A stretch of 63,464 bases of DNA, counting the filler, from Perkinsus chesapeaki ATCC PRA-425 (lineage: Eukaryota; Protista; Perkinsozoa): assembly GCA_013115145.1 (NCBI GenBank). It is 11 parts of 11 records of this genome, joined end to end, with 100 filler letters (N's around TTAATTAATTAA, not from the genome) between each part and the next. Parts side by side here need not be neighbours in the genome. Positions count along the whole stretch, not along the records: positions 44,021 to 46,501 come from JAAPAO010001593.1; 10 more parts are not named here. One strand, written 5' to 3'. The notes beneath the pieces are model-generated. The model searched no databases, was not told the DNA's origin, and saw only the letters and a program-made list of their open reading frames with translations. Both the position numbers and the translations under genes were made by a program. Of this stretch, positions 7,873 to 63,464 are shown piece by piece. Every line of letters begins with the position of its first letter. Within the stretch, counting starts at the first letter, position 1.

Positions 7873-8079
7873 TGTTGTAATCGTTGTAAGGAGAACCTAA
7901 GATTGCATAGTTTATGCAGAATGCCTCAGTAGCATATTCCTGCATTTGTTGTACATTTTAGCTGCGCTAGCGCATAGCTTATGTTCTAGAGAGTAGAAGA
8001 GCATATTGGCTCCTACGGTTGCACCTCCTTACTACTTTGAGGACTGTGGTGTTCGTCAACTAACTCCCCAACAATAACA
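7873..8079 (+). repeat. 5' LTR (207 bp)
   Basis: Direct repeat of 12630-12836, with TGTTG...TAACA termini. Confidence 0.96.
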
Positions 8080-8098
8080 ACTGGTACTGGAACCGAGA

Positions 8099-8922
8099 AT
8101 GACTAACATTGAGAAGAAGGAGAGTGGTGCTCTGTGTCCGACCTTCTCAGGAGTGGCTGAAGGTGACCGCGCCAATCCTACTAAGTCTGTTGAGATTTTC
8201 TTGAGAAGGTTTGAGACCTATCTAGAGATCAAGGGTATCATACCACCGTCTGATGAGAATGATCAGCAAGCTCGCCAGAGGTACGAGCGACAGCGCGTTG
8301 GACTTCTAAAAGCAGCATTGAAAGACAAAGCTGCGGCCTGGGTCTATTCCCTCCCAGAGGACACTCAGCACTCATACGAGAATGTTCTCCGTGAATTGCA
8401 AGCAGCGTACGGAATCGATGTCCTAGAAGCCTATACCAGCTTCAAGGGAAGAAAGCTGAAGTCTGAAGACAATGTTGACTCATTTGTTGCGCTTCTAAGA
8501 CATGATCTTCACATATGCTTACCGGTGGTAACTACAGATGCTCTACTGAAACTTCAACTATTGGCAGGGTTGCCCAGTGGATCCAATGCCAAAGTGCAAG
8601 CCCTTGCTCGTGACTCCGCCGAGACGTCTTTGGACCAGTTGGTGCTGACTGTGAGAGAACAGATGAGAGCCGCTAGGGTGGATAGCTCCACTACCCAAGT
8701 AGGTGCATTCATGCCGTCGACCTCGAGGAAGGGCAAAGGCAAAGGAAAAGGAAAAGGACGTCAGGGATACCACGAGGCCGTTATACTGCTCAAGATAATG
8801 GGCCTGTGATATGCTATGAGTGCGGACAGAGGGGGCACATTCGCCGCCAATGTCCGAACCTTAGGGCCGAAGAGAATCCGGTCCAGGGAAACAGGCCGCC
8901 GGTGGCGCAGAGCGATCAGTAG
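8099..8922 (+). pseudogene. gag: gag with CCHC zinc knuckle, one frameshift near 8770
   Basis: ORF 8099-8809 is gag-like. The knuckle CYECGQRGHIRRQC lies in another frame and ends at TAG 8920-8922. Confidence 0.85.
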
Positions 8923-11900
8923 GCGCTGCGTCACCAAGTAACTATCATAAGCCTACTGCTATGATTGATAGTACTAAACTACCTACTGCAAAGTGCTCGA
9001 TATCATCACCCGAAACCAATTTGTCATGGTCGGGTAATGCTTTACTCGATTGTGGCTATTCTCTCATTACTTGTAAAGTTGTTGATGTATTACAAAGTCA
9101 AAGTATGGTTCGTAAAGAACCCTCTAGACTAGTTACCCTGTCGAATAATGATTTGGTGTCATGTGGCCGTATTAATGTCGGTATTACCTTGTCGAGCTCT
9201 ACGGCTCGGGCCACTATATTAGATGTTGTAGTCGTCCAGAGCATTCCGGGGAATTTGGAATGCGTTATTGGATTTGACTTTTTCCGTGAAACTGCTTCAC
9301 GATTAACTCTCAGTGTAGATTCTTATTCAGGACGGCCAGTTACGCTACTGAGCGCCCTAGGCCCGTCATTGAAGCCTATTACCAGAGAAGCTCGCTTCAA
9401 GCTTCCGTCATGCGACGTTTTAGAAGAATATGTGGGAGATCAAGTCATGAGGGTGACGTTGGAGGCACCCGACTGTTGGGCCCAGCGGGATACCATCCAA
9501 GAAGGACAGAAGGCATCAGCGGTCTATCAGTGGACGGTTGGTTGGGAATGGAAGGTTGGTGAACGGCAAGACCAAGAAGAAGAACCGCCCCATATTCCGG
9601 GTCCTAAAGAGATACCGGGACTGCTCGATACCTTGACGGACGATGAGTTCAAGGACCTTTCTAATGAATTACAGTCTTGGGTTGATAAAGGATGGCTTGT
9701 CAAAGTAGAACCAGCTGATGAAGAAAAAGTGCGAGCAGTATTACCTATTGTTCCAGTGATAAGCATCCACCGTTCAACAACCGCTCGCCCGACCCTAAAT
9801 TTCAAACGAGTGAACTCACGATCAGTACAAGCAGCAGATCCTTATGCAGCAAGCTGTCCGGCATCGCTGAGAGCATGGAGAAGGTATGATAATGGTATTC
9901 TTCTGGATATATCAAAGGCATACCCAAGTCTACATATTAATAAGCAGCAAAGTTGGTATCAATGTATATATATTAGATTCAATGGGAGGCATGAGCCAGG
10001 CCAGCTTTACCGCTTGGTTAAGTTGGGCTTTGGCCATGCGTCAGCGCCCCGGCTACTGAAAATGACGTTGGACTACATACTGGGCCCTGACGAAGACACC
10101 AGTACAATAGTAAAGGAGAGTCACAAGCATCCGATATACCCAGTACCTCGACACTTAAAGTATTTTGATGATATCCTGGTGCCAATAGGACGCGAGGAGA
10201 CACGTGAACAAGCCCAACATAATGCCGAAGTCATACGGTCGTTACTAGCTGACAACAAGTTGATTACAAAGCCCCCACAACCCCTAGACGAAGCTCGTCT
10301 GTTAGGTCTGGTCATCAAGCGGGATGGGCAAGGCAAGCTATGGTGGTCCCGCAGGAGTCCGTCAAAGACGTTAGTATCATTTAGAGAGCTATTGTTGTCG
10401 GAGAACCAGGCGCCTTCTGCCCGAGAAGTATCATCATGGTTAGGGTCGTTAGTTGCTCACCTTCCGGTACTATCATGGTTGAGACCCGCAGTTGCAATTA
10501 GTAAACGTCTATTAGGCCAATCTATAGGTAGAGACCTACTCAAGTGGGACCAGCCTACAGAACCAGCTATTATTAATTATTGTACTCAACTATGTGACGA
10601 GCTCGAGCAACGAGGCGTCCCGGCCCGAGGCCTATGGCAATTACCACAAGCTGAGGATCTAATACACTGTTATGTTGATGCCTCCGATATTGCAATTGCC
10701 TGTGTGATGACGGATACCGCCAACAACATTATATATCATACAACTACTTTGAGAAAAGTGCCGAAGGGAGCTATCAAGGATTCCTCTCATATAAACACAG
10801 CAGAGCTAGAGAGCGCGATTCTGGGCATTGAGACTTCAATAGGGTTATTCTAATGCTATATTATTTTGCGACTCGTCTGCTGTATATCATTGGTTATCAT
10901 CAATTATTGGTCACAAAAAAATAAAAGTTAGTGGTCTCTATAAAATAATTATTAGTCGACGCCTAGATATTGTGCGATCGCTGATTACCCTATTTAACTT
11001 ACATCTGGATATCCGGCAGATTAAGTCTCATGAGAATCCTGCCGATTCTCTAACTCGAGTTTGCTGGAACTATCAACTTTTATCAGAATCTACCACCCAC
11101 CTCCTGTCTGCTCTGCTTCCGGAGCAGGGGGGCGAGGGACAGTGGTGGCCAACACTGGTCGAGTTACGAAGAGCTCAAGGAGTTGGTGACGATGAACCTT
11201 TGGTATTACATAATGGTCTACCTTTACTTCCTGAGTCATTGCAGCATAGAGTTATCACCCAGCTTCATGAATCTCAGCTACATGCTGGGGAAGCAGCAAC
11301 TCGAGAGCGTTGAGCGTTGCGAAGGGTGTATTCTTTCCCTAGGTTATCTGAAACGGTACACCAAGCTCTACAGCAATGTCAGAATGAAATATGTATCCGA
11401 GAGCGAGCCAAAGTGACACGCATTGACAAGACAAATCCAAGACGCCTAGCAGAAGGAGTTTGGACAGTGGTAGCAGCTGTCAGCTGATGTCACTTATGTT
11501 CACAGTGAAGCATTCTTACTGACAGTTGATGAATATAGTCGTTATGCTTGTGTAAGACGGGTTCGCAGCGAGGCATCCAATGAGCTATGGGGTGCACTGA
11601 AGTCTATATTTAGGAACCCTTACTTGGGCCTCCATACCTGCGCTGCGATAAAGGCAAAGGATTTTTGGCTTTGCAAAAGAGGCTAGCGACTGTAGGTACC
11701 ATTCTAGTCCCTACCAGCGGTCATAGAGCTACAGCAAATGCATGCGTTGAGAGATTACATCGCACTATCAAGGAGAAGTTGGTATTTGTATCTGATTCGA
11801 TGCCACTAAGTGAAAGAATGCAATTATGTGTTTCTATATATAATGAAACCATACACAGTGGTATGAAGGAAACCCCACTGAATACATTGATTGGTCGCCG

Positions 11901-12468
11901 AGTTCGATATGGTGCAGAGTTACCGATGCCGGTACCAGCACCAGAAGGGCTCTCTTTATTTACGATTGGTGAATGGGTATGGGTGTTGCGACCAGATCCC
12001 GAGCGGCGAGCTGGAAACCGCTTCTATCCAAGGGAATATATAATTGTATCTACGTCTACCCATGCTTCAAAAGTACGACCAGTAGGCCAAGGAGTATCGA
12101 ACGTGGAGCTTCTCAATGTTTCTAATGATCGTCTCGTGCCAGCAAGAGGAGAAGAATCACCAGAGACAGAAGACAGTGCATCCGTGCAATCCGAAGAACT
12201 TACTATCAGTTCGAGGTCAAGCCTTGCGTCGGTGGCCAACGACCAAGACATTGAACCTTTGGACAACGATGACATTGAGGCCGATGAAGACTCGATGAAT
12301 GAACAATCTGAACCAGCTGCCCAGTCAATTGGTTCCCCTAATGAAGGAGATGTATCGCCTGCCTTAGCTCCTCGCAGTCGGCGGCCACCCTTAAGGTTCA
12401 GCCCGGGCGGAAACCCAAAGCAAACTAGCTTTGATCAAGAAGGATATCCTATTCCCCAGAGTTCATGA
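8886..12468 (+). pseudogene. pol: pol (protease, RT, RNase H, integrase) with frameshifts and an in-frame stop
   Basis: Protease LLDCG. RT LLDISKAY, KLGFG and YFDD. RNase H YVDAS, NTAELES, FCDS and NPADSLTR. HHCC finger and integrase core (DVTYV, DKGKGF, ANACVERLHRTIKE). Frameshift near 10850, TGA at 11311-11313, further frameshifts near 11480 and 11640. Confidence 0.9.
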
Positions 12469-23968: not shown

Positions 23969-24093
23969 CATCACCGTTTCTGTACTCGCTATGATTCACA
24001 GTCCTTGTAGTCTCTGTAAATCACAGTTTTTGTAGTCTTCGTAGATGGCAGTTTTTGGAATCTCAGTGAATCACAGTTTCTGTATGCTCTGTG
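23969..24093. repeat. Degenerate 25-bp minisatellite, 5 copies
   Basis: Units such as AATCACAGTTTTTGTAGTCTTCGTA start at 23969, 23994, 24019, 24044 and 24069. Confidence 0.75.
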
Positions 24094-24372
24094 AATGTTG
24101 TCGTCTGATGACACTCGTAGGATCTTTCGTTACAATACTTCTTGAGTTGAGTAACTATTAGTAACCAGCACTTGCTCGGTTAGGAACTAATACTGGAACT
24201 ACTACACCATTTCCAGATCAAGTTAGTGAAACCCCGGAGCAATTAAATAAAGCCGAGACCATATTAGCAATACTGTACTATCGCTCTGAGAGATAGTATT
24301 TCTCTATGTAACGATTTTTTGTTAAGCCATTACTCAGAGCTCAACTCGAATATCGCAGTGGCTGACCCAGCA

Positions 24373-24867
24373 CTAGAAAGAGCTCGCAGAGAGAGCTTCA
24401 AGTTGGTACCTTACTTCACTTGTCAACGCTTGCTGTTTCCCTTTTATTCCCTTTGCAGCCAACGCTAAATTCTGTAGCAGCCCAAGGGACAGCGGTTCTG
24501 CTTGTTTTGGGGCACCCGCTCTCCGAAGGCAAGCCGCTCGGATTCTCCTTTCATACGCCCTTTGGCTACTCGTCAATTCAAATCCCCTCATCTCGTTGAA
24601 TACAATTGCAACCATTAAATAATCCGCCGCTGATTTGTAACCAGAATCCCGGAGAGCGGCTGTCACCCTTTCCATCTTTTTCTCGTCCAATGGAAACGGT
24701 TCAACCCCCATATTCCGGCTCAGCTCCTCCCAGAGTCTCAGCCGAGACCGATACGTTGCCTTTGTGCTCTCAGACAGCATAGCATGTTGCATTTCCCGAA
24801 CCTCCTTGTCCAGCTCAACCGCGTGTACTGGCTTTGTAAGATACCGCGCACGTTTCCTGCGAGACAT
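24373..24867 (-). pseudogene. Tyrosine recombinase N-terminal (core-binding) part of the DIRS element, catalytic domain missing
   Basis: LSESTKATYRSRLRLW...PFPLD...ALRDSGYKSAADYL...KQAEPL is typical of DIRS YR N-termini. No R-H-x-x-R/Y catalytic motifs follow. Confidence 0.75.
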
Positions 24868-25258
24868 GCTAAACCACTCTGAAAATCAGGAAATTGTTAA
24901 CCAAGAATCAACCCCAAACGGAAGCCATCAGCAAATGGAAGCAGCCAACACCTTCCAGTCCCCCCCGTTTGCTGCACCTCCAACACAGGAACAATCCGTC
25001 GCGAGCCACCTGCTCAGCGAGTTCGCATGAAAGAGAATAGCCACCTGCTACACTCAAACAACGCAACCGATAATCCTGAACCAGATTCACAAAGACAGAT
25101 CCGAGAGGCACGCACTGCAGGCTAAATGTAATCGTCACAATCACAAAAAGCCGTCATCCACGAGTGGCATCACCGCCCGGATCCGGGAACCCTGACCACT
25201 CCTGGTCCTCCCGGCCCAGATAAAATAGCGCCCAAACACGGGGCCAGAAACGCACCCA

Positions 25259-27404
25259 CTAAGCCACCTTCCAGAAGGCATCATTTCTTGGCTGGCACAA
25301 GCTCCGGGTCGCCGTTGCCAATGCAACTGGAATAACCCCAGGTGAGCTTGGCGCAGTCATCCGACTCAGCTTATCAGCCACACCATTCGCACTACTGCTG
25401 ATGTGCACGTACGACATTCTCAAAGCCCTCATGTCACAGGCACACTCCCATGCCAACTCGGCCATAACCATGTTTATCGCCGGGGACGACGTTCTCAATT
25501 TCATAACTGCCCCAATAGCCGTACGGGAGTCGCTTCGACATCGAATGGACGCTGAAGGAGGCAAGTACTTGCGCCACAAACGAACCGCTATCAAAACAGC
25601 CAATGATTCCCATAGGCTCTGGAATCTATGGTCCCCAACCACAGCCTCAAACCTCTTCGTATCCGACGGCAACACGGGATCGAAGAAAAAATTGGAGATC
25701 ACTCCATCCAACGAAAGGGCGCCACCAAACCCCCATGGGGATGCATCCGCGACCATCTCCGTAGTAGTGCCCGCTGGGAACCTTCTAGCGAATAGATGGT
25801 TCGGCCCTGATGCAATCGAGCAGGCCCTCTCCAGCATACACGACTCGTGTAACACGAGAACCACCGCAGCGACCGCGTGATACGGCCGATAGGGATCCAA
25901 CCAATTCCTTTTGTAGGCATCTCCTTGACACCGCCTAACGCCTTCCACAATGGCCCCAGCAAAGCATGAACGAACGGGATAATCTGACCAGACCAGCACA
26001 ATTTACCGCACAGTCGGCGTAGCACTTTCGAGGAGACCACTTTATGTGAGGCCAAGGCTTGTAATACCAACTCTCGCATAGACTCCAGCTTCTTGGAAGG
26101 GATAGAAGCACAGAGAGAGCTGCCAGACACCGCCAAACGGAAACCAATCCATACTAGCTCAGTCCCCCGTTGGAACTTGTGGTAGCTAAATAAAAGACCA
26201 ATCGCCGCCCACAATAACACCGGAAGGGCCAATAGGGTAGTGCGCTCCGCTGGTGACTTGGCTCTCACCGAAATATGCGGGTCATCCACAAAGCAACTCA
26301 CTCTTCCTTCCGAAGGCTTATAAAGTAGCTGAGCCCATCTACAAGCCGCAGATGAGTAACGGCACCATACCAACGGACTAGACCGCACCCCGAACATTAG
26401 AACATGGAAAAGGATCCAGCGACCCTCAAAGTAACACACTTGAAACCTCTTCTCCTCGAAACGAACTGGAATTAATTTAAAGGCGTCCTGGAAATCGACC
26501 GTAAGGCACTCAATGTCTGATCCGGGTCCCCATTCCAACAGCTCGTGCACATTCCGCCGGAATGATTCCGGACAACATCGCACACTCTCGAAAGGACAAT
26601 CCTCTCCGGACACTCTACAAGCTTGTTCAAGCGGTTCTCCTTAGCATCGCAAATGAGCCTGAATTTTGGGGGAGACGTATGAGGCTTTGTAGCTAAGGTG
26701 ATTTTTGTAGCCTTCACTTCCGAACTACCAACCGCCTTCTGCAACTCTTCCAAGCTATCATAAAAGGAACAATAACCAGCTTGACGCTCCTTCTCGTGCA
26801 AGGCCCACGTGTTGTCGGGGTCGGCTTCTGCCGACAAATAGTTAGTGAAAGCCGAAGCGCCAACATAAGAGTCCAACCATTCCTTTCATTCGTCCTCTGC
26901 AGAATCATCCGCAGGGGAGACGGGAAACCAACCGTCAGGAACAATCCTGGCAGATATGCCAATGGGCGCACCCACCTGCAGCCACGAATGGAGTGAACTG
27001 TCAAAGTCAGCCGCCAGATCACCGACAATCTTCCACAGACCAGGCCGGAGCGGTGTATTTGGATTGGATCGTGCACTATCAGCGTCCGAACCATGGCCTA
27101 CACGGATAATCGCCTCCCTAGCCTGATTGACAACCGGCTCTGGCAAGGCGGAAAAGGAACCATTCAACCCCAAAGACCGTGACACGGCCTCGAAGTTGCT
27201 TCTAATAATATCTTCTAGTTCTCTACGTAACTCTTGCATCTTAACCCGGCCATCTGGGAGGAATTTAGTAGCATCATAAGCCCGCCTTAAACCGTTCGAC
27301 GATTCTGGAACCAGCGGAACGGGAGCATCGCAACATGTCAACAGTGACTGGTGAATAGACTCATTTGTAGACACTGTATCATTCGTGCGATGTGTGGCTG
27401 CCAC
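25259..27404 (-). pseudogene. DIRS-type reverse transcriptase-RNase H, broken into four ORF pieces
   Basis: ORFs 26886-27404, 26472-26876, 25699-26613 and 25259-25999 join into one pol-like chain with KFRLICDAK, VDFQDAF, FVDD, LCGKLCW and DAS motifs. Confidence 0.85.
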
Positions 27405-28879
27405 TAATCCACCCTGCCGGACAAGGACCGATCAGGTACGGCCAGCGCCAGGCCCACCGGAGAGGGAAGAGCTTTTAGCACCAACCTTCGGCACATCGGT
27501 CGACTTGGACGAGCCTTGCTTCGGGCACAAGTTGCGCCCACGCGGGAGGTCGTGGCGGCCATTGCAGCCTTGGCATAGGTGGATACGACCATCCTTACAC
27601 TTGTCCCCGCTATGGCGACCATCTTGATAAGCATAGCAGTATTGTTGACTCACGTCACGTGACGCTTTCTGCCTTCCCGACCGGCCCTTATCCGTCTTCT
27701 GAGGAGCGCTGGTCTGGGCCCCGAAATGTAGACGCATAACCTTGTGATCAACATGGCGCCTCTAAAACGCCGCGTCATCCGCTGCCCGGACAAAACAAGC
27801 TCCCCAAGTCAACGTGGTATCAGAGTCCTTGTAAGAGCTGATGTGAACGCTACGCATGAGCTCATCCGCTTCGACAATTATGGACCAAAACTCATTGAAG
27901 GTTTCTGACAAACTTTCTATACCATTCTTGTATCTCTCAAAGTCTGCGAAACTCCCCTGCTGTAACAGAGCCATAGCATGCTTGAAGATTATGAAGCTCT
28001 CACGCCATTGAGACAATGAAGGAGTAGATGTAGAGACCACTTTGGTAGGAACACCATCGTCCATCAAGGGTCCATCGGTGGACCTTCTCTTCCCTCAACC
28101 TTTTACGTTGACCCGATGTCCATACACCGAAATCGACGAAGGGGGCTTCACCTTCCAATAAACGAGACTGGAGGGCGGATGCTTGCTCACGAGTTGGCAA
28201 TTGGTGAACCGGAACATCACCGTACTGCTTCTTGAACAACGTCAAACGCGAACCATAATCATCCGCCGATGGCAGAGCCAAGGTGCCTCATCCACTCCAT
28301 CCAGAAAGGAACTCATCTTGAGCCTCTTAGAAACCGGACCCTGTCCATCCGAGGAATGGGTAGGAGCGTGAAGCTTGTCAGAAGAAGCCAAAGAAACCGT
28401 TGTACGAGCCACAGACGGTAGACCGCATTGCTCTCGGCACAAGTCATACAACAGCATCACATTGCTCCTATAGACAGCGTTATCGATGGATTCAAGGGCC
28501 TCTACCACATATTTCGGATTCACGAAGGCAAAGTTTGACACCAGAGGCAGGCAATCCTTCTTCCCTCCGAGCTTCAAGCAGAACTTCTCCCATAATTTAT
28601 CACCAACGTCCGACATCACCCTCAATTCCCTGATGTCGACTCTAGCAGCCTCAACTCTACTGAGGAGGGACACGGGGTTCGAGGGAGGCGCCGGCGAGGA
28701 TGAGGGAGGAGTTGCCATAAAAAAATCAACCGTGATACAACTAACCGAAGTCAAACGTATATGCTGGATTGAATTCGATTGTGAGATCATAACTACACAC
28801 GGACATCCTCAAAGTCAACAAAAAAAACAGGACCGTATTCGAATTCATCTTGCACTCTTATCAACTTCCTCCGCACATG

Positions 28880-37361: not shown

Positions 37362-38442
37362 TCAAGCCTTGCGGAACTACGGGTATCTCTCGTCCAGGCT
37401 GGTATAAGTGTACACTTTCGCCATGTGCAGGGTAAGTGTAATGTCATCGCCGACCGCCTGTCACGTCTAGGTATCCTGTTCCCGCTTCGCCCGGTTGCCA
37501 CGGATCAGTCCACCACCATCAGCCAACTGCCTCTCGTAGGCGTGGCCTTGGAGGTATCTGGTGAACTCCTTCACATGGTTGAAGCTGCGACAGCGTGTGA
37601 CACCACCATACCTACAGGTCTCGAAGCTGGTACTGTGAAAGGGAGGTCAGTCCTACGCAGAGGAGGGGCGATATATATCCCAGAGTCTTGCCGGCAACGT
37701 GTGCTCGCACTCGCTCATTCAGGAAACCATCTTAGCGGTCGTCGCACTGTAGGGGCCATAGCTAATTTAGCCTGGTGGCCATCGTGGAGACGCGATGCGA
37801 AAGAATGGGTGAAGAAATGTGCAAGGTGTGCCAGAGAAGCGGCTAGCATTCAAACTGATAAACTTGAAGGCAAACTATCATCTCATTTTGCAACCGAGCG
37901 CTTCTCGGAGGTATACATCGATGCGTGCCGCCCTGATGTGGGATTAACTGTGTTCCTCATCGTTGATAATTTCTCCCGTTGGGTGGAGCCTTATATCACT
38001 GAGGACGCTTCATCCAAGTGCGCGGTAGAAGCTTTGGTTCTTTGGTGCGCTCGGTTCGGGTGTCCTAGAAGTGTACGATGTGACCAAGGAAGCCACTTTG
38101 TAGCTGAGACTTTCAAGCATTACTGTGAGTCTAACAACATAGAGCTTTCCTTTGGGAGCCCCTACAACCCGATGCGTCAAGGGTTGGTCGAGAAACAAGT
38201 AGGAGAGCTCAAGAAAGGCCTCAGGAAGCTCGGTAGGTGGGACGCAGTTGCGGTGTCACTAGTTTGCTCTGCAAGCAACAATAGTGACATCGGCGACACA
38301 GGGTTCACTCCCCATGAACTAGTTTTCGGTGAAGCTGGAAGGAGTGCTCTTTGGCAGGCACTTGCCGATGATGCAGAGGAAGCAAATATGTGGTGTCGTA
38401 TGGATGTGAAAGACTACTGCCAGAGCCTGGCTGCCCTACTCA
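37362..38442 (+). mobile_element. Ty3/gypsy pol fragment: end of RNase H plus HHCC and DDE integrase, open across the whole contig
   Basis: HVQGKCNVIADRLSR, AHSGNH...CARC, VYIDAC...IVDNFSRW, RCDQGSHF and NPMRQGLVEKQV. Confidence 0.92.
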
Positions 38443-44020: not shown

Positions 44021-45407
44021 CCGATGGAATTGGAACCCGGATTTTCCGACGTGGAATTGGAACCCGGAAGCGATGTTCACTTTAATCGGCCCCAGGTGTT
44101 TCCGGGTATGGTGGCCAAGCGCCTGGGCTGGAAGAATCCGGTTGTGAGACTTGCCTTGCGGCTGGGTGCGTGGTCCACCCTATACGAGCAAGCAGGTGCC
44201 ATGATATTCTTCAACTCCATCGATCAGGATGTGCTGTTGGCTGTGGCAGTGTGGATGGTTTGATATCCCGCTCTGTGATTGGCCGGCGGCTCTGAAGCAA
44301 CCCTTGGCTGTGGTGCGTCGCACTGGCATGTTGGGTCGTGTGGTCGATGATAGGGTGTATGCTTTGCGCAAGCTGCCTTCTGCTATTTTTAGAAGACCTG
44401 ATGATGCCGACTGGTCCGCTGAAAAGGAGAGCAAGTTTGGATCTTATTGTCGGAAGTTCACTCTGTCCAGTGCCAATAAGTATATGGAATGGTTCTATCT
44501 TTCTGCGCTGTCATTGGAGAGGATGGTGGTTTCGAAGCAGCTTGGGAGGGCGGATCTGGCCGGTTTTGATCACTGGTGGAAGCGCCGCCACCACATGCTG
44601 GCTGGAGGTTCTTCTTCCTTCAGGGCTGCCGCCACTGCACAGATTCGCGATCCGCGACTACGTAGTGATGATAGGCCTGGGAAGAAGCTGGTAATGGAGA
44701 CTAGTTTGCTGAGGTCGCCTGCAGCCATTGTCAATGATGAACCGCTTGGCGTATATCGCACTAGTACCAAATATGAGCCGGGTGCCAAGCAACGTGCGTT
44801 ATATGCCGTTGATGATGATTGTTATGTAGTTACGGCCTATGCTAGTTCCAATGCCGAGAAGGAGATGTCCGGAATCAGGTATGCTCTCCCAAAACAGCTA
44901 CCCACTGATGCAGTGGGCTGGCAAGTCATGAGTGAAATGCCTGGGTTGTCTTGGCTGTCTGTGGATTATTCTGACTACAACTCAGAACACACGACTGCCG
45001 AGCTAGTGTTGATCAACTTAGCTCGTCATCAGGCTTGGTTGGACTACTTGCCCCTTGGGGTGAGTGATGCTGTGCCCGACAAGCTGCAGGCCACTGCCTG
45101 GGTTGCCCTATCGCAGTTCAATTCCTACTGCATCGGCAACGACATGAATTGTAGGAAGACACAGGGCCTGGGCAGTGGTGATAGAGATACGGCCAGAAAC
45201 AACACTGGGATACACGATGTGAACGTTGACGTCGCTAGGACTGACCTGAAGCTATGTGGATTTCCCGTTGACCCAGTTTATGGTGATGACGAGGACATTG
45301 CTTTTTCGGAGTTGTGTGAAGCTGTTGCTTACGGGAGCTACCAGCGCAGCGTGGGACATGGCATTAACCCATTGAAGGTGTTGGCCGGCTTGCATCATCA
45401 TGAGTAT
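44021..45407 (+). other. RdRp: Endogenous viral element: totivirus-like (Ghabrivirales) dsRNA virus RNA-dependent RNA polymerase, truncated at motif E, one frameshift near 44250
   Basis: Ordered motifs: WWKRRHHMLAGGSSS; STKYEPGAKQRALY (44763-44804); DYSDYNSEH (44964-44990); GLGSGDRDTARNNTGIH (45165-45215); YGDD (GDD at 45282-45290); GHGINPLK; HEY. These are colinear with the totivirus pattern STKYEWGKQRAIY / DYDDFNSQH / SGxRxTxxxNT / GDD / EFL. Confidence 0.88.
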
Positions 45408-45801
45408 GCAAGTACCAGAGTGGTTCAAGCTCCAGCTAAATGAGCGAGAAAATCAGGTGATGGCGTTTGAGCTGTATGCAGTAGCTGCCGCAATCGAAAC
45501 GTACTGTGTAGACCCCAGGAGGAGTTATCTGGTCTGTACGGATTCGGAGGTTGTCCGTAAGATGGTGAGCCCGGGATCAGGGAAACCTGCGGACATGAAC
45601 GCGGTTGTTGGGCGTATGTGGGATCGCTTAGCAAGCGGGCTCGTAAGCGCGTACTTCTGCCGGGTTGCTAGTGAGGCGAACCCAGCGGATGGGCCATCCC
45701 GAGGGCTGCCCGTGAGCAGCCAGTGGGTAGAAGTGCCCTGGAGGACACCTGGTGTCCTCCAGGGCACTTGGTCCAAGCTACTTGCTATGACGAGCAGCTA
45801 G
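45400..45801 (+). mobile_element. DIRS-type RNase H fragment (lacks first DAS motif) fused to the viral RdRp
   Basis: QVPEWF...RENQVMAFELYAV...CTDSEV...RVASEANPADGPSRG matches the E, D and final D RNase H motifs, as in the DIRS element at 25259-25999. Confidence 0.82.
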
Positions 45802-47733
45802 TAAGAGATACACGAGGCGCGTCAGCGCCGGTGCAGAAGCTTGAAGTCGTGAGCACCATAGGTGCTGGTAGAGGAGAACATGCGTGTTGTGTTCGTAGTG
45901 CACCACAAGATGGGCAGGCACCAGGCCTGCTCAATGGGGCCACGCAAGCTGACCGGGCACAGCTACAGCTGCCAAAAGGGGGCTGCGCAAGGTGGAAGAA
46001 TCTCGAAAGCATCACGGAAGGGTGAACGGGCCCTGACGATGGCCGGGCCAACCAGGTGGACGAGTAGGACCCAGAGACCGAGCTGCAGCTAGCGAGGAGG
46101 CCGCTCAAGGTCGGGAGGAGCGAACGACAAGGCCGAATTTCCTGACTGTCAGGGCGACGCTCTAGCATACGGAAGGCCGCTCTTTAGCACCGGAACCTCC
46201 TGTTCCGTTCCCCGCGTCACCCATCCGCTGACGCACGCGTGCACATGGAGTTACGCTTCGCCGGATGCCCATAGGATTTTACAACGAGACACTAATGTGT
46301 ATCGATATATAGTTCGTTGTTGATAGCTTACGTAGATGGATTGGTGCCACTGGAGACCGTTGGAGTGAGCCTGTTATTCTTGGTCATGTTCGTTGGACGA
46401 TCAATCACTCAGAGATAGGAGATTCCAGTCTCTGTCCTCAGATTTTGATGTTCTCAAGACCGATTGTGTTGCCCTGTATGCGTGCTCCTGTTACTGAGAC
46501 CNNNNNNNNNNNNNNNNNNNNNNNNNNNNNNNNNNNNNNNNNNNNTTAATTAATTAANNNNNNNNNNNNNNNNNNNNNNNNNNNNNNNNNNNNNNNNNNN
46601 NTATAATTAATAATAACAATAGTATTAGGCACACTCTTCATGCCTAATACTCAATTCAATAATTCAATTTATGTCACGTACTCATTTATTCTGTAGCGAC
46701 ATATTAACGGGGATACTGCCAGTAACCCGGCATCATTATGTTTTTGATTTTTCATTGTTTAATCCTTTGTTCCGTTACATTATTGGTCAATCAAGTGAGG
46801 GATTATTTACTTTTAAATTTCTAATTTAATCTATTACTGCTACTACTGCTACTACTATTGCTACCACTACTATTATCACTCATCACCCCTCATATCATCA
46901 CTACTACTATTTCGCTTTTATTACTACTTTTGTTATTACCACAATTATCACTTCTACTAGGAGTTATTTTTAGTACTATTAACTTCCATCACCGCATTCG
47001 TTTCTATTTCTATTAACACGTGTATTACCACTATTATCACTTCTATTAACACCACTACTACAGATGTTGCACGGTAATATTGAACACTGGTATTCACTAA
47101 AACAGCAACTACCTAATTGACACGACTAATAATCATAGAGCATGAGCCTTGTGCTATTAGTTTCTGTTTAGTATTTAACCACTTGTTGTTGTTACATTAT
47201 TGGTCAATTAAGGATTATTTATAGTGTAACTCGGAGCTAAAGTTAAAACTAATCTAGTACAACTAATATTTAATGCACATTTTACTTACGAAACCAATGA
47301 ACTAAGCGTGTTTGTGGTTTCCGAACTAAGTGATATAGGATCGGTAGTATAATTATATTTAGGATTATAGGAGGATTATATTATTATGGTAGGATTATAA
47401 TTATATCAGTATTCTGCATAAGGGACATTGTAATAATTACACAGGGTAACTTCATACTATAAAAATACACACGAATATATTGAATATACTGATACTATAC
47501 ATACTGTCGCACACACTAACATAGGGCTTTGTCCACATCTATTCATTCACGTATTACACTCATTAAGCAATTCTCAATATTGTTAATTAGTGTCAATTGT
47601 TGTTGTCACATCCGTGTACTCCCGTCTCGGGCCATACCACACCACACCACACCACCAAACTAGTCCAAACCAAACTTGTAAGGGTTGTTAGTATATACTT
47701 AAGTAAAAAACTCTGTTTCTCTTCAGAAATAAA

Positions 47734-59485: not shown

Positions 59486-62400
59486 GCACAGCCTCGATGC
59501 ATGAAGTACCTTGATCTCACCATCGCAGACTATCTTCACCTTGCGAAAGTATCCATAATCTTCGGCATTAGTGATGAGACCACTTGAAGTTGGAAAACCA
59601 ACCACCCTCCAGCGCCTCTCGCTGAAAGGGGTATCATTAGAGTTCGTAACCACCTTGTCGAACCTCGTAGTTGCCCGCACACGGACAATACACCCTGGGT
59701 AGAGCTCATGCTTAGTACTGGAGATAAGTTTCTTCTCTGCTAATTGTACTGCATGGTCGACGAGTCTCTTCCACTCGACTCCGGCTGGATCGGCATTGAA
59801 CATATCATTAGGGATCCGACCAGTAACAGAGTGACATGTGGTATTATATGCCCTCATAACTCGAGCAACAGCAGCATCCACATCCATAGATGCATCATCA
59901 GCGAGCACAGCACGCATCCAGCGTCGCACGGTGCGGTGTAGTGATTCAATCATACCATTAGACTGACTGGAACGTGCCGGCGTGTGCAAACGAGTGACAT
60001 TGGGAAGCCTACACGCCAAGAAGGCAGCAGCGTTGTCAGTCAGCAGATACACAGGGCGTTTCCCCAAGATCTCCCAGCTTCTCTCGAAAGCCTGCTGTAT
60101 AGTAGCTGCATCTTCACCATCAAGCTTGATTAGACATGCATACTTACTGACAGCACATTGCTGAGAGAGATACGGTGCTGGTAAATAAACAACATCCGCA
60201 CTAACAACCGAGAAAGGCGTGGCTCCGGCTAGTCTATCAGGCGAAAATATACTAACATCATGGCCCACTATCATGGGTCTGGACTGCCGAGAACATATGT
60301 CGCAGTTCGACAGCATTGCTGCTGTCTCATCCAAGATATTAGGGAACCAGCACAGTCCTGATAGTACTTCGACTATACGCCGAAACCCGCTATGGCAGAG
60401 GAGCGAGTGGACACCATGAACAACCTCGGCCTTCAGAGTATCTGGCAGTACTGGTACAGTAACCACCAATCCCTTACACGGGGCATAGTATTCACGAACC
60501 AGCATATCATAGTCGTTGATGCTTATGTCAGGTAACACCTGTTGAATGTCCATTGGTACAGACTCAGGGACCAGCCGGCCACTACGGAGAGCTCGGCGAA
60601 CCTTATAATAAACCTCGTCATCATACTGGGCGTCTATGATCGCCCCGTGGTTCAAAGTAAGGTCCTCATCAAGCAACCGCACACCCGGCTGCGCCACCGT
60701 GGCCGCGCCGCCAATGTCAGCCTCGACATTAATTCCATGACGGTCATGACGGTCGCCCTCCATGGATGAGAGTATAGCGAGGAACTTCTCATCCACTCGC
60801 GTTAGGATGTCACTGCCATTGGACTCGCTTTCTACACGACGCACCTCCAGACTCTGCAGCACCTCCGCGATATCATAGATGCACTGGAGCCTTCGGCTGA
60901 CAATAGTACTGGCCAAACCACCTTTCTTGACCGCCTCTCCTTTCAGGAATCTACTAACCCAGGCGCGTACGCACTCATTGTCCACGTGCAAGACGACGCG
61001 GCCATTTACATACGGCGACGCCCAGATCAGTGCCTGCGCAGCAGCGCAAAGCTCATTGATATTTACATGTCTTAAGGAGGCTCGGCGGTCAAGCAGCCAC
61101 GATACATCTCGAACCACCACTCTTTCGCCATTCTGCCTTTCATAGGCCAAGGTGGCACCCATAGCGATGCCACTGGCGTCGGACTCGATGTGCCAAGCCA
61201 CCACCTCATCACTCGTAGAAGGCGGACAGAACCAGATCCCGCTGGCGGGGTCGCCCTCGCACTGGAGCTTCTCATAGATGCAGGCCGCGAGGTCGACAAC
61301 ACTCTCGTCCACCACAGAGTCCCAGCCACCAGAGCTGGATGCCCGCAACAGCATAGCCACACATGGCCGTAACCAACCTGCAATGGGAACGTGCCCTATA
61401 AGGCGCCCACACCACGCTGACAGTTCTCTGCGAGTGATAGGATTGGATGTGTCCATCTCCAAATCCAGATCCGCGCGCCGTTTCCACCGCAGACGGCCTG
61501 CTTCTCTGTATAAATCTAAGCCAAGCACTCGCGATGACTCACCGATCTTACAGGTTTCCTTACAATACATATTTCCCTTGGCCAATGCTTCCCGTACAAG
61601 CCGGACCGATTCAGGCTCAACAGCTGCCTCTCGCTCCCCGCACCCTTCATCTTCGATTATTATATCATCTATAAATGATGAGATAGGGTATGGGATACCA
61701 CGTAGAAGCCAGCTGATAACGGCAGTTGCCACCTTGGGCGCCACTGAAAGACCAAAAGGTAGCACTTTCATACAGTACACCTTCTGATTGATGAGCACAC
61801 ATAAGTACTTGTACAAGCATGGCGCCATATGTATGGCATAGTAGCATTTTTTGACATCCAAAGTGTAACCGTGCACCACTGACCTCCACCGATGGAGCGT
61901 TTCGGGACAATTCACGATACCACGAACAGGCTCGCTCTTGAGGCACCGGTTAAGTCTCCGGAAATCGAGGCACATTCGCAATGGTGTGGTGGTCTTGTGT
62001 GGCTATGACACCAATACCCAAGGCAAAATATTATATACCTCTCCTTCGTATGGAGCTACCCAACCGTTCGATACCATCTTCTCCACCTCCACAGTCACTT
62101 GTGCTTCTTCTTCTGAGGTCAGGGATGGGTTGTAGTCCCCCCTATTCGCCATAGTCATAGGGGAAGGGCCTCGGCCATCCCGCCATATCCAGCGACATGT
62201 GAAGTGGCAGTCATTGGCTTCACGAATAACCTCAAAGTCATCAGCTGTGATCACCACCTTACCGCTCTGATACACATGAGCGTGAACACCAGGAAGATCG
62301 GGTAACCGGCACTCGTTGACTAGCGTGTCACCACCCTCGTCAGAACTTTGAACTCGCGCTGCAGCGCCGACCTGCACCTTACCCGCCTGGTTCCATCGGA

Positions 62401-63464
62401 GGCCTTGAAGGTGACGTCCCGCAAAATCGACGCCTATAACAACCGCTCCAAGAACGGTCTGGGGTACCACATGGAATACATGGGGCACTGATTTTTTCTG
62501 GGCAGTGCCGCTTTCATCGAAACTAACCAGGAGGTGAATAATACCAATAGTCTTCAGGAGGCCAGTCCCATCCATCTGGGTCAAGGATACTGAAGGGCCC
62601 GCGTCATCCATTACCCAGCCTTGGGCTTTGACGAAACCAATAGAAATAAGGGATATGTCGCAACCAGTGTCTACTGCGGCTTCGATGGGAACACCTCCAA
62701 CCTCACATATTAGATGTGGACGAACTACATTCGCAAGACGGCATCGTCCACCTGACGTCTTGCTAAGGGAAAACCCGACTCGGCACTGGCAGCACCAGCC
62801 AAAGTAGTATCGCCAGTGCGACTCGGACCATTACCATTGGTGGCCGCCGCCCCACTAACGTTAGATTGTCTCTCAGAGGCCCTTCTCGGACAGTCCCTGG
62901 CCATATGGCCACGCTGACGGCAAGCAAAACACTTGACCCTCTTAAGATCATTGGGCCTGTTTGTTCGTCTCTGGCCACTGCCATGAGACCTTGCCCTGCC
63001 GCACTCGGCAGCCGTGTGGCCTGCTGTTTTACATGCATAACAGTACTTGCCACTTGTGATGCTTGCTGCAGCTAACGCATCACTAGTCTGTGCGTTGTGC
63101 TTGAGAAGTGTACGGGCTTTGACCACGACGTCATTGAGAACCAACTCGCGCCCGTCTTCCTCGAACGCCTCGATAGCTCTTCTCACTTCAGCGGGCATAC
63201 TAGCCATAAGGCTCTCCTTCAGCAAGACCTCTGAAGCAACGGTAGAAGTGACTCCCAGCACACGCAGATAGCGCTTGAACTCAGCGATGACGCCATCAAC
63301 CGAGTCTTTTGGACTCCACTTGTGTGTCGTCAGCAACCTCCAAGCCTCACCAGTCTTCAACGAGTAAGCTTGACCCATGCGCCTAACCACGTGGGAGTAG
63401 ACCCTATCATTCTCGGGCTCGTCTTCAACCTCGTCAAGTGCCTGACGGGCAACCTCCTTGGCAG
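59486..63464 (-). mobile_element. LTR retrotransposon internal region (gag with two CCHC knuckles; PR-RT-RNaseH-IN), LTRs outside the visible piece
   Basis: gag is open from the window end to 62725 (CYACKTAGHTAAEC, CFACRQRGHMARDC). Protease AVDTGC in the -1 frame. RT CLDFRRLN, LDVKKCY, LPFG, FIDD. RNase H ESDAS, NINEL, HVDN. Integrase HxxxCH..CDIC, SADV, LTDN, NGMIESLH. One in-frame TAG at 62003-62005. Confidence 0.93.

Follow-up and report, generated by a model that had tools for sequence, protein, structure and literature searches.

A broken endogenous toti-like polymerase joined to the tail of a putative DIRS-lineage retroelement in Perkinsus chesapeaki

Layout of the fused locus

We analysed a window of 63,464 nucleotides from Perkinsus chesapeaki ATCC PRA-425, made of 11 contigs joined by N spacers, in which a fragment of a virus RNA-dependent RNA polymerase (RdRp) and the tail of a retroelement lie together on one contig of 2481 nt (window positions 44021-46501, JAAPAO010001593.1). 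A protein search placed the NCBI gene model FOL47_002230 (KAF4649284.1) over this locus; its 600-residue product, P0001, splices virus and element into a single protein and is probably an annotation artefact. From left to right, the locus contains the following features, with the evidence for each in brackets.

44021-44096, no strand: end of an unrelated dispersed host repeat (depth, divergent flanks)
44097-44245, plus strand: upstream part of the RdRp, in the frame that precedes the frameshift (homology from 44108)
44245-44250, plus strand: frameshift break, approximate (same letters in the contigs of 4 of 4 runs guessed to be DNA)
44250-45407, plus strand: RdRp fingers and palm with motifs F, A, B, C and D, cut inside E (profile, model)
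~44763-44795, plus strand: RdRp motif F (alignment)
44964, plus strand: Asp of RdRp motif A (alignment)
~45174-45210, plus strand: RdRp motif B (alignment)
45282-45290, plus strand: RdRp motif C, GDD (alignment)
45375, plus strand: Lys of RdRp motif D (alignment)
45399-45407, plus strand: RdRp motif E, His-Glu-Tyr (alignment)
45407-45408, plus strand: virus/element junction (graph branch point, upstream letters of the parent element)
45408-45801, plus strand: 5'-truncated RNase H of an RT/RNase H element of putative DIRS-order type (P. chesapeaki gene models, profile)
45731-45769, no strand: perfect palindrome of 39 bp with 19-nt arms (run contigs)
45802-46156, plus strand: element tail of ~355 nt, in which no recombinase, methyltransferase, internal complementary region (ICR) or split direct repeat was detected
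46157-46310, plus strand: terminal segment, likely an inverted terminal repeat (depth, reverse strand of P0004)
46311-46501, no strand: host flank (run contigs of 686-853 nt, extending beyond the end of the window's contig)

The viral part spans about 44100-45407 on the plus strand, which amounts to ~1.3 kb or ~435 codons. The original prediction had given it ~460 codons; the polymerase and its one frameshift stood, and the stretch from 44021 to ~44095 turned out to be host repeat. Its stop-free frame at 44205-45443 matches Pfam RdRP_4 (PF02123) at E 2e-15, with 57.1 bits against a curated cut-off of 22, which is the outcome that the viral reading had anticipated. The upstream part alone gave no significant match (E 1.9); bridging the two frames with an X yielded 122.1 as against 105.6 bits, a score that 200 shufflings of the upstream part never reached. 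Motifs F, A, B, C and D follow one another in the predicted order and the profile match stops at motif E, where the polymerase had been said to end. An AlphaFold model of the fragment (86 sequences, pLDDT 93.6) presents a toti-like fold; in the alignment, palm motifs F, A, B, C, D and E stand in order.

Between motif B and the GDD there are 39 residues, against 40-46 in all 138 pattern-matched homologs (149 examined). This spacing, below that of every matched homolog, suggests a second, in-frame lesion, probably a short deletion just before the GDD. Because 432 viral codons are free of stops and just 2 of 50 conserved columns are altered (a number equalled or exceeded in 36 of 85 homologs), neutral decay of the viral piece lies below about 10%: a test on these stop-free codons rejected 10% (P 0.005) and was borderline at 5% (P 0.07). 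With the thumb missing and the frame shifted, a working polymerase is predicted to be absent.

At the junction, the assembly graph branches exactly at 45408 into the letters that lie upstream in the parent element, and a parent or sister copy reads ...KVWYSKG-QVPEWF across the same point. The two halves had been thought to be read from the same bases in different frames, which proved wrong: 45408 is the first base of the element, and the join runs through the ATG, which takes two bases from the virus and one from the element, so that the 'M' was created by the join itself. The claim that virus and RNase H are cut at a single point held, in the form of a base-precise join at 45407/45408. The last letter before the junction is G in the parent and T in the virus; in all 136 homologs that matched the pattern, the residue after motif E is Leu, whereas the element starts with G, and therefore no microhomology is seen or expected. 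Neither filler nor host letters were found at the junction. The viral plus strand and the element tail run in the same sense, with the element's 3' end kept.

The RNase H keeps the catalytic residues Glu 45469, Asp 45541 and Asp 45688. The first catalytic Asp, which in the parent (YADATG) lies 25 residues upstream of the break, is lost, as the original prediction had it in describing an RNase H without its first DAS motif; a working RNase H is thus predicted to be absent. The downstream ORF also has the retroelement RNase H homologues expected of it, namely three P. chesapeaki RT/RNase H gene models: P0004 (96% identical over 45409-45726), P0005 (63% over 45409-45750) and P0161 (45% over 45412-45762), whose own Pfam matches are weak and under the cut-off. 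Only 4 of 106 residues differ from the sister copy and 7 of 517 letters from a run contig, and by sequence the viral and element parts look similarly young. The sister model P0004 is without most of the RT and may, judging from the gene model, be internally deleted, in which case deletions may occur in the subfamily. The RNase H frame stops ~35 codons after NPADGPSR, and within the tail that follows, 46075-46111 is conserved in a diverged subfamily. The RNase H was correctly recognised, and the element extends past 45801 to a terminus at ~46310.

Of the palindrome at 45731-45769, 25 letters are absent from the contigs of sequencing runs X1, X2 and X5 and present in run X3; the difference stems from a small inverted duplication in one copy or else from an artefact of the graph. 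Over 45408-45749, an element subfamily differing at 46 of 342 letters occurs at ~7-8 times the viral depth in X2, X3 and X5, which are one sample, with none in X1. It may reflect a recent expansion in one isolate, and contig filtering could explain its absence from X1. An Rfam scan returned one hairpin match, which we take as chance.

The element family's 3' end lies at 46310/46311, behind which many contigs diverge into different flanks. Depth over the element's last 155 nt is roughly double that of the adjoining inner piece, and 46168-46272, read on the reverse strand, forms the start of the P0004 model (94% identical). These two observations suggest that the element has inverted terminal repeats; an adjacent inverted copy would look alike. 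On the other side, the left end of the viral piece is hidden by the repeat end and the contig break. This left repeat has a depth of ~500, as compared to 65-108 for the viral part, carries a 17-nt direct repeat twice, 27 apart, and in its other copies enters different flanks at 44088-44099. It has no significant match to the element tail, and no further copies of the left repeat or of the element terminus were found within the window, a 16-mer with 2 mismatches at 26521 being attributed to chance. In some copies the end of the left repeat resembles an intron 3' end (…TTTAAT…CCCCAG/G), with one copy that misfits; it could be an Introner-like element or the end of a DNA transposon.

Presence in host DNA and relatives of the virus

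Five sequencing runs guessed to be DNA, from two studies, contain 80-94% of the sampled words. Four runs were compared in detail, their type ('DNA?') being guessed, from two samples and two studies: three are a single sample, and the fourth, from the other study, may be the window's own source. The junction 31-mers were found in 4 of 4, and in each a contig of 1374 nt covering 44064-45437 is identical to the window, with 0 differences and no gap. Recovery of the same junction contig in all four runs and both studies therefore argues that there is no assembly chimera, and bears out the earlier claim of a single-contig junction in genomic DNA. The element side of this bridging contig reaches 30 letters past the junction and so misses a 31-letter bridge rule by one, because the 31-mer graph ends where a second path joins; that path carries the parent element's letters before 45408. 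The span from virus to element terminus lies in no single run contig, and its linkage rests on the window's own assembly.

The viral contig has a depth of 108 in X1, where long host contigs have 85 and 82, and of 65 in X3, where they have 73, 100 and 159, and it reaches 0.45-0.70 of the right flank depth; the comparison is rough and gives no copy number. Contigs of two runs guessed to be RNA had no match to the locus, from which nothing is concluded on expression or a live virus. The sequence is present in host DNA runs (of guessed type) and joined to host sequence, as is expected of a non-retroviral endogenous viral element (EVE), and it displays the fragmentation and decay of one: both ends cut, one frameshift and a short B-C spacing. 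The locus is a real, young, broken EVE in P. chesapeaki DNA. That it is the fossil of a dsRNA virus, as originally proposed, agrees with an RdRp fragment that lies in DNA, cut at both ends and frameshifted.

A HMMER scan with the RdRp returned 245 proteins at E up to 0.001; among the best 150 listed, the top non-self relatives are 40-41% identical and are environmental sequences without names. Named matches are only 28-32% identical, with TM scores of 0.89-0.91, and among viral models (BFVD) the structure model matched best to Riboviria sp., Hubei toti-like virus 6 and Ahus virus (TM ~0.9), the last of which NCBI places in Ghabrivirales. The viral part shares the RdRP_4 family, motif order and fold with Ghabrivirales toti-like viruses, the nearest named ones being Hubei toti-like virus 6, Ahus virus and 'Totiviridae sp.' QDH87804, and by sequence it reads as a toti-like, Ghabrivirales-type RdRp fragment. 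With ~435 codons it is shorter than the ten best relatives, which have 840-990 residues, and it differs further in its frameshift and in the absence of ORF1, the thumb and the C-terminal part. In an RdRp tree of 68 sequences, built with no classified references, the EVE falls in a 15-member clade with a support of 0.99; its branch of 1.53 is the second longest of the 68, and the tree holds no close exogenous relative.

A scan of IMG/VR with the single protein gave 0 relatives. An alignment scan gave 147 relatives among 239 candidates, of which 80 were kept, and no long nucleotide match was found between the EVE and these 80 loci. A large ORF1 of 1046-1184 codons overlaps the RdRp ORF in all nine IMG/VR viral contigs examined, and none of five ORF1 products had a Pfam capsid match. 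Searching PDB sequences with the single RdRp protein gave no match, and the RdRp profile gave weak matches to norovirus RdRp and P-loop kinases alone; Foldseek with the RdRp model retrieved generic RdRps from PDB. The full-length RdRp relatives (P0008-P0017, L009) carry a C-terminal P-loop region, at profile positions of about 776-916, which matches adenylate kinase (E 3.6e-05) and is missing from the EVE. One further relative, P0003, is a toti-like RdRp fragment on a 1.9-Mb ladybird beetle contig and is probably another EVE of this virus group.

Class of the retroelement partner

We scanned metagenomes for relatives of the RT/RNase H and obtained 8 from 231 candidates. Two of them, L001 and L004, display the order gag-like, RT/RNase H and recombinase-like ORF, and match the parent profile at E 9e-66 and 2e-43, as compared to E 0.24 or no match for the gypsy-like RTs of the window. 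The recombinase-like ORF of L004 matches PF00589 at E 0.0013, below the cut-off; that of L001 has no Pfam match and the same motif pattern as L004. L002 has a pair of 132-nt direct repeats downstream. With a profile of four relatives (L001, L004, L005, P0162), the window's RNase H scored E 2e-20 and two gypsy-like ORFs of the window, used as controls, 0.003-0.006. Atlas neighbours include RT clusters with a Dam methyltransferase in 19-26% of members, a lead toward the DIRS order. This sequence evidence places the RT/RNase H with the tyrosine-recombinase retroelements (DIRS lineage).

The tail is another matter. No tyrosine recombinase was found in it with Pfam, Atlas or a profile, a weak one that also missed the window's other DIRS-like element, and an Atlas search with the upstream half of P0161 gave no match. 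Nor was an ICR seen in the tail, the best inverted match being 7 nt and equalled in 268 of 300 shuffles; no methyltransferase or 3' end of a recombinase follows the RNase H in the ~355 nt before the terminal repeat; and the tail holds no direct repeat from which split direct repeats (B1-A2-B2) at the element 3' end could be made up. A recombinase-like motif noticed by eye at 45862-46092 was rejected: it had no Pfam match, scored at most 0.76 in Atlas and was equalled by 108 of 150 shuffles against a weak profile. Applying the DIRS1-like and Ngaro-like definitions as worded in passages of PMC3266345, PMC3783388 and PMC6681497, the tail fails both, and the element is not a canonical DIRS1. Among known systems, the nearest to the partner are the tyrosine-recombinase retrotransposons treated in these papers (DIRS1-like, Ngaro-like, PAT-like and VIPER-like): the relatives that resemble its RT/RNase H closely, L001 and L004, carry a recombinase-like ORF directly behind theirs, and likely inverted terminal repeats and an AT-rich end recall DIRS1-like elements. 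What sets the fused element apart is a tail in which no methyltransferase, ICR, recombinase or split direct repeat was detected. Of the original label 'DIRS-type', the RT/RNase H lineage was thus retained and the downstream hallmarks were not. A recombinase, if there is any, must lie upstream or act in trans. An upstream recombinase is the order of VIPER-like elements. With an RT/RNase H, a terminus that is likely inverted and neither recombinase nor ICR downstream, the partner family would fall outside the described DIRS superfamilies.

A second DIRS-like element lies at 24373-28808 on the minus strand, with an RT (PF00078, E 8.8e-05), an RNase H with a DAS motif and an ORF that resembles a recombinase N-terminus by eye, with no Pfam match; a 25-nt tandem array at 23974-24097 lies beside it. 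It was rejected as the parent of the fused element (BLASTP E 1.1, profile E 0.011) and is distant kin.

Origin of the fusion and its context

The original prediction held that the element's reverse transcriptase made the fusion by switching templates; its viral RdRp, presence in DNA runs, base-precise fusion and polarity were recovered here, and that the join arose during reverse transcription is what we infer. We give somewhat better than even chances to a switch from element RNA to a viral plus strand. A dsRNA virus has no DNA stage and mainly its plus strand is exposed. cDNA synthesis would have begun at the element 3' end and copied about 900 nt, after which the RT, with no homology at hand, would have moved onto viral mRNA at motif E and copied 1.3 kb or more of it. 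Integration, probably by the family's own machinery, would require a second jump, back to the element 5' end, which is hidden from view; later, a different repeat would have come to lie at the left end, and the frameshift and probable small deletion would have arisen. An element-to-virus jump would put a viral plus strand 5' of the element's 3' tail, both in one sense, and on the right the hybrid ends precisely where the family does, like other copies of it. Passages of PMC6797480 document LTR element-virus hybrids without sequence homology in mosquito cells. Two of four join geometries fit a template switch, however, so polarity gives only about twofold support, and the blunt junction also fits end-joining or deletion. 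The possible internal deletion of P0004 and the lack of a recombinase seen for the element family likewise weigh against the switch, and DIRS-type integration is thought to need a circle, which a one-ended hybrid could not form (passages of PMC3266345).

Because the left end of the hybrid is hidden, a join made at the DNA level is a real rival, one we regard as quite possible though short of probable: viral cDNA from any host RT would have been patched into a break in a resident element copy, or a deletion would have fused a neighbouring EVE with the element. The blunt junction is at home here, the exact right terminus would stem from an ordinary earlier insertion, another repeat adjoins the other end of the viral piece, P0004 looks internally deleted, and the several other retroelement-like ORFs of the window imply that elements are common targets. 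The same-sense polarity with the 3' tail kept, the similar apparent age of the two parts and a junction without filler or host letters all sit less well with it. That the viral cDNA was brought in by the left-hand repeat, perhaps acting as the partner that made or integrated it, with the right junction secondary, is improbable: viral homology does start within about 12 letters of the repeat end, but its other copies end at the same place with unrelated flanks, as expected of an element end in its target, and we know of no RT link for this repeat. Least credible of all, and very improbable, is an assembly chimera or viral cDNA contaminating DNA libraries. At 2481 nt the window contig is short, none of the run contigs reaches from one end of the stretch to the other, the bridge has 30 letters on one side and the run types are guessed; yet the same 1374-nt junction contig emerged from independent graphs of four runs in two studies, it is about as deep as long host contigs (a rough comparison), and the frameshift is fixed in all runs, which is unexpected for a replicating virus.

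The template switch also has a fuller version, in which the locus would be a complete terminus-to-terminus hybrid: an atypical DIRS-lineage element ending in inverted terminal repeats, its interior replaced by dsRNA virus RNA via two template switches, integrated by the family machinery. We consider this rather unlikely. If true, the locus would directly document, for the first time, that a retroelement of the tyrosine-recombinase lineage wrote an RNA virus into a genome, and would speak for an unsampled toti-like virus that recently infected Perkinsus. Mouse IAP-LCMV hybrids are reportedly a further case of non-retroviral RNA sequence joined to a retroelement. The closest likeness is to LTR-virus hybrids and EVEs (Aedes Ty3/Ty1 with Sindbis virus and CFAV; passages of PMC6797480), in which non-retroviral RNA is joined directly and with no evident homology; here, in contrast, the partner is of DIRS-order type, the virus dsRNA and the host an alveolate protist, with one junction visible.

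Passages of PMC12548735 report Mononegavirales-like EVEs in P. olseni, of the same genus as the host here, and call them the first EVEs of Perkinsozoa. They also mention, citing RdRp-scan, one toti-like RdRp fragment of P. chesapeaki, listed as the phylum's sole trace of an RNA virus, with no word in those passages of integration or of a retroelement junction for it; two supplementary files of that paper gave no match to Perkinsus or FOL47. This fragment is very probably KAF4649284.1, and the viral sequence itself is probably not new. Perkinsus is unmentioned in the main text and one supplement of PMC9752661, whose online database may hold an entry for the P. chesapeaki fragment. Work on totivirus-like sequences in the nuclear genome of a red alga is cited in the reference list of PMC9651163. 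In a mostly title-level survey of the literature, with few subscription papers, we found no report that the fragment is endogenous, none of the fusion and none of any RNA virus joined to a DIRS-order element.

EVEs from RNA viruses are attributed to the reverse transcriptases of LINE and LTR elements. The locus offers a base-precise junction with a third RT class, that of the DIRS lineage, and a template switch here would make a little-known class of retroelement a way for RNA viruses to reach genomes. It also turns the sole reported RNA virus trace in Perkinsozoa into an endogenous fossil, not a live virus, and, given the youth of the EVE, a relative of the virus may be circulating in these parasites of shellfish (clams) to this day. 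The finding is a single decayed locus that shows no sign of function.

Elsewhere in the window, a host gene with DnaJ and SAP-like domains lies on a neighbouring contig at 40967-42706 and has no link to the fusion. Inspection of the translations by eye assigned 8078-12468, 37362-38442 and 59486-62830 to gypsy-like gag/pol and integrase ORFs.
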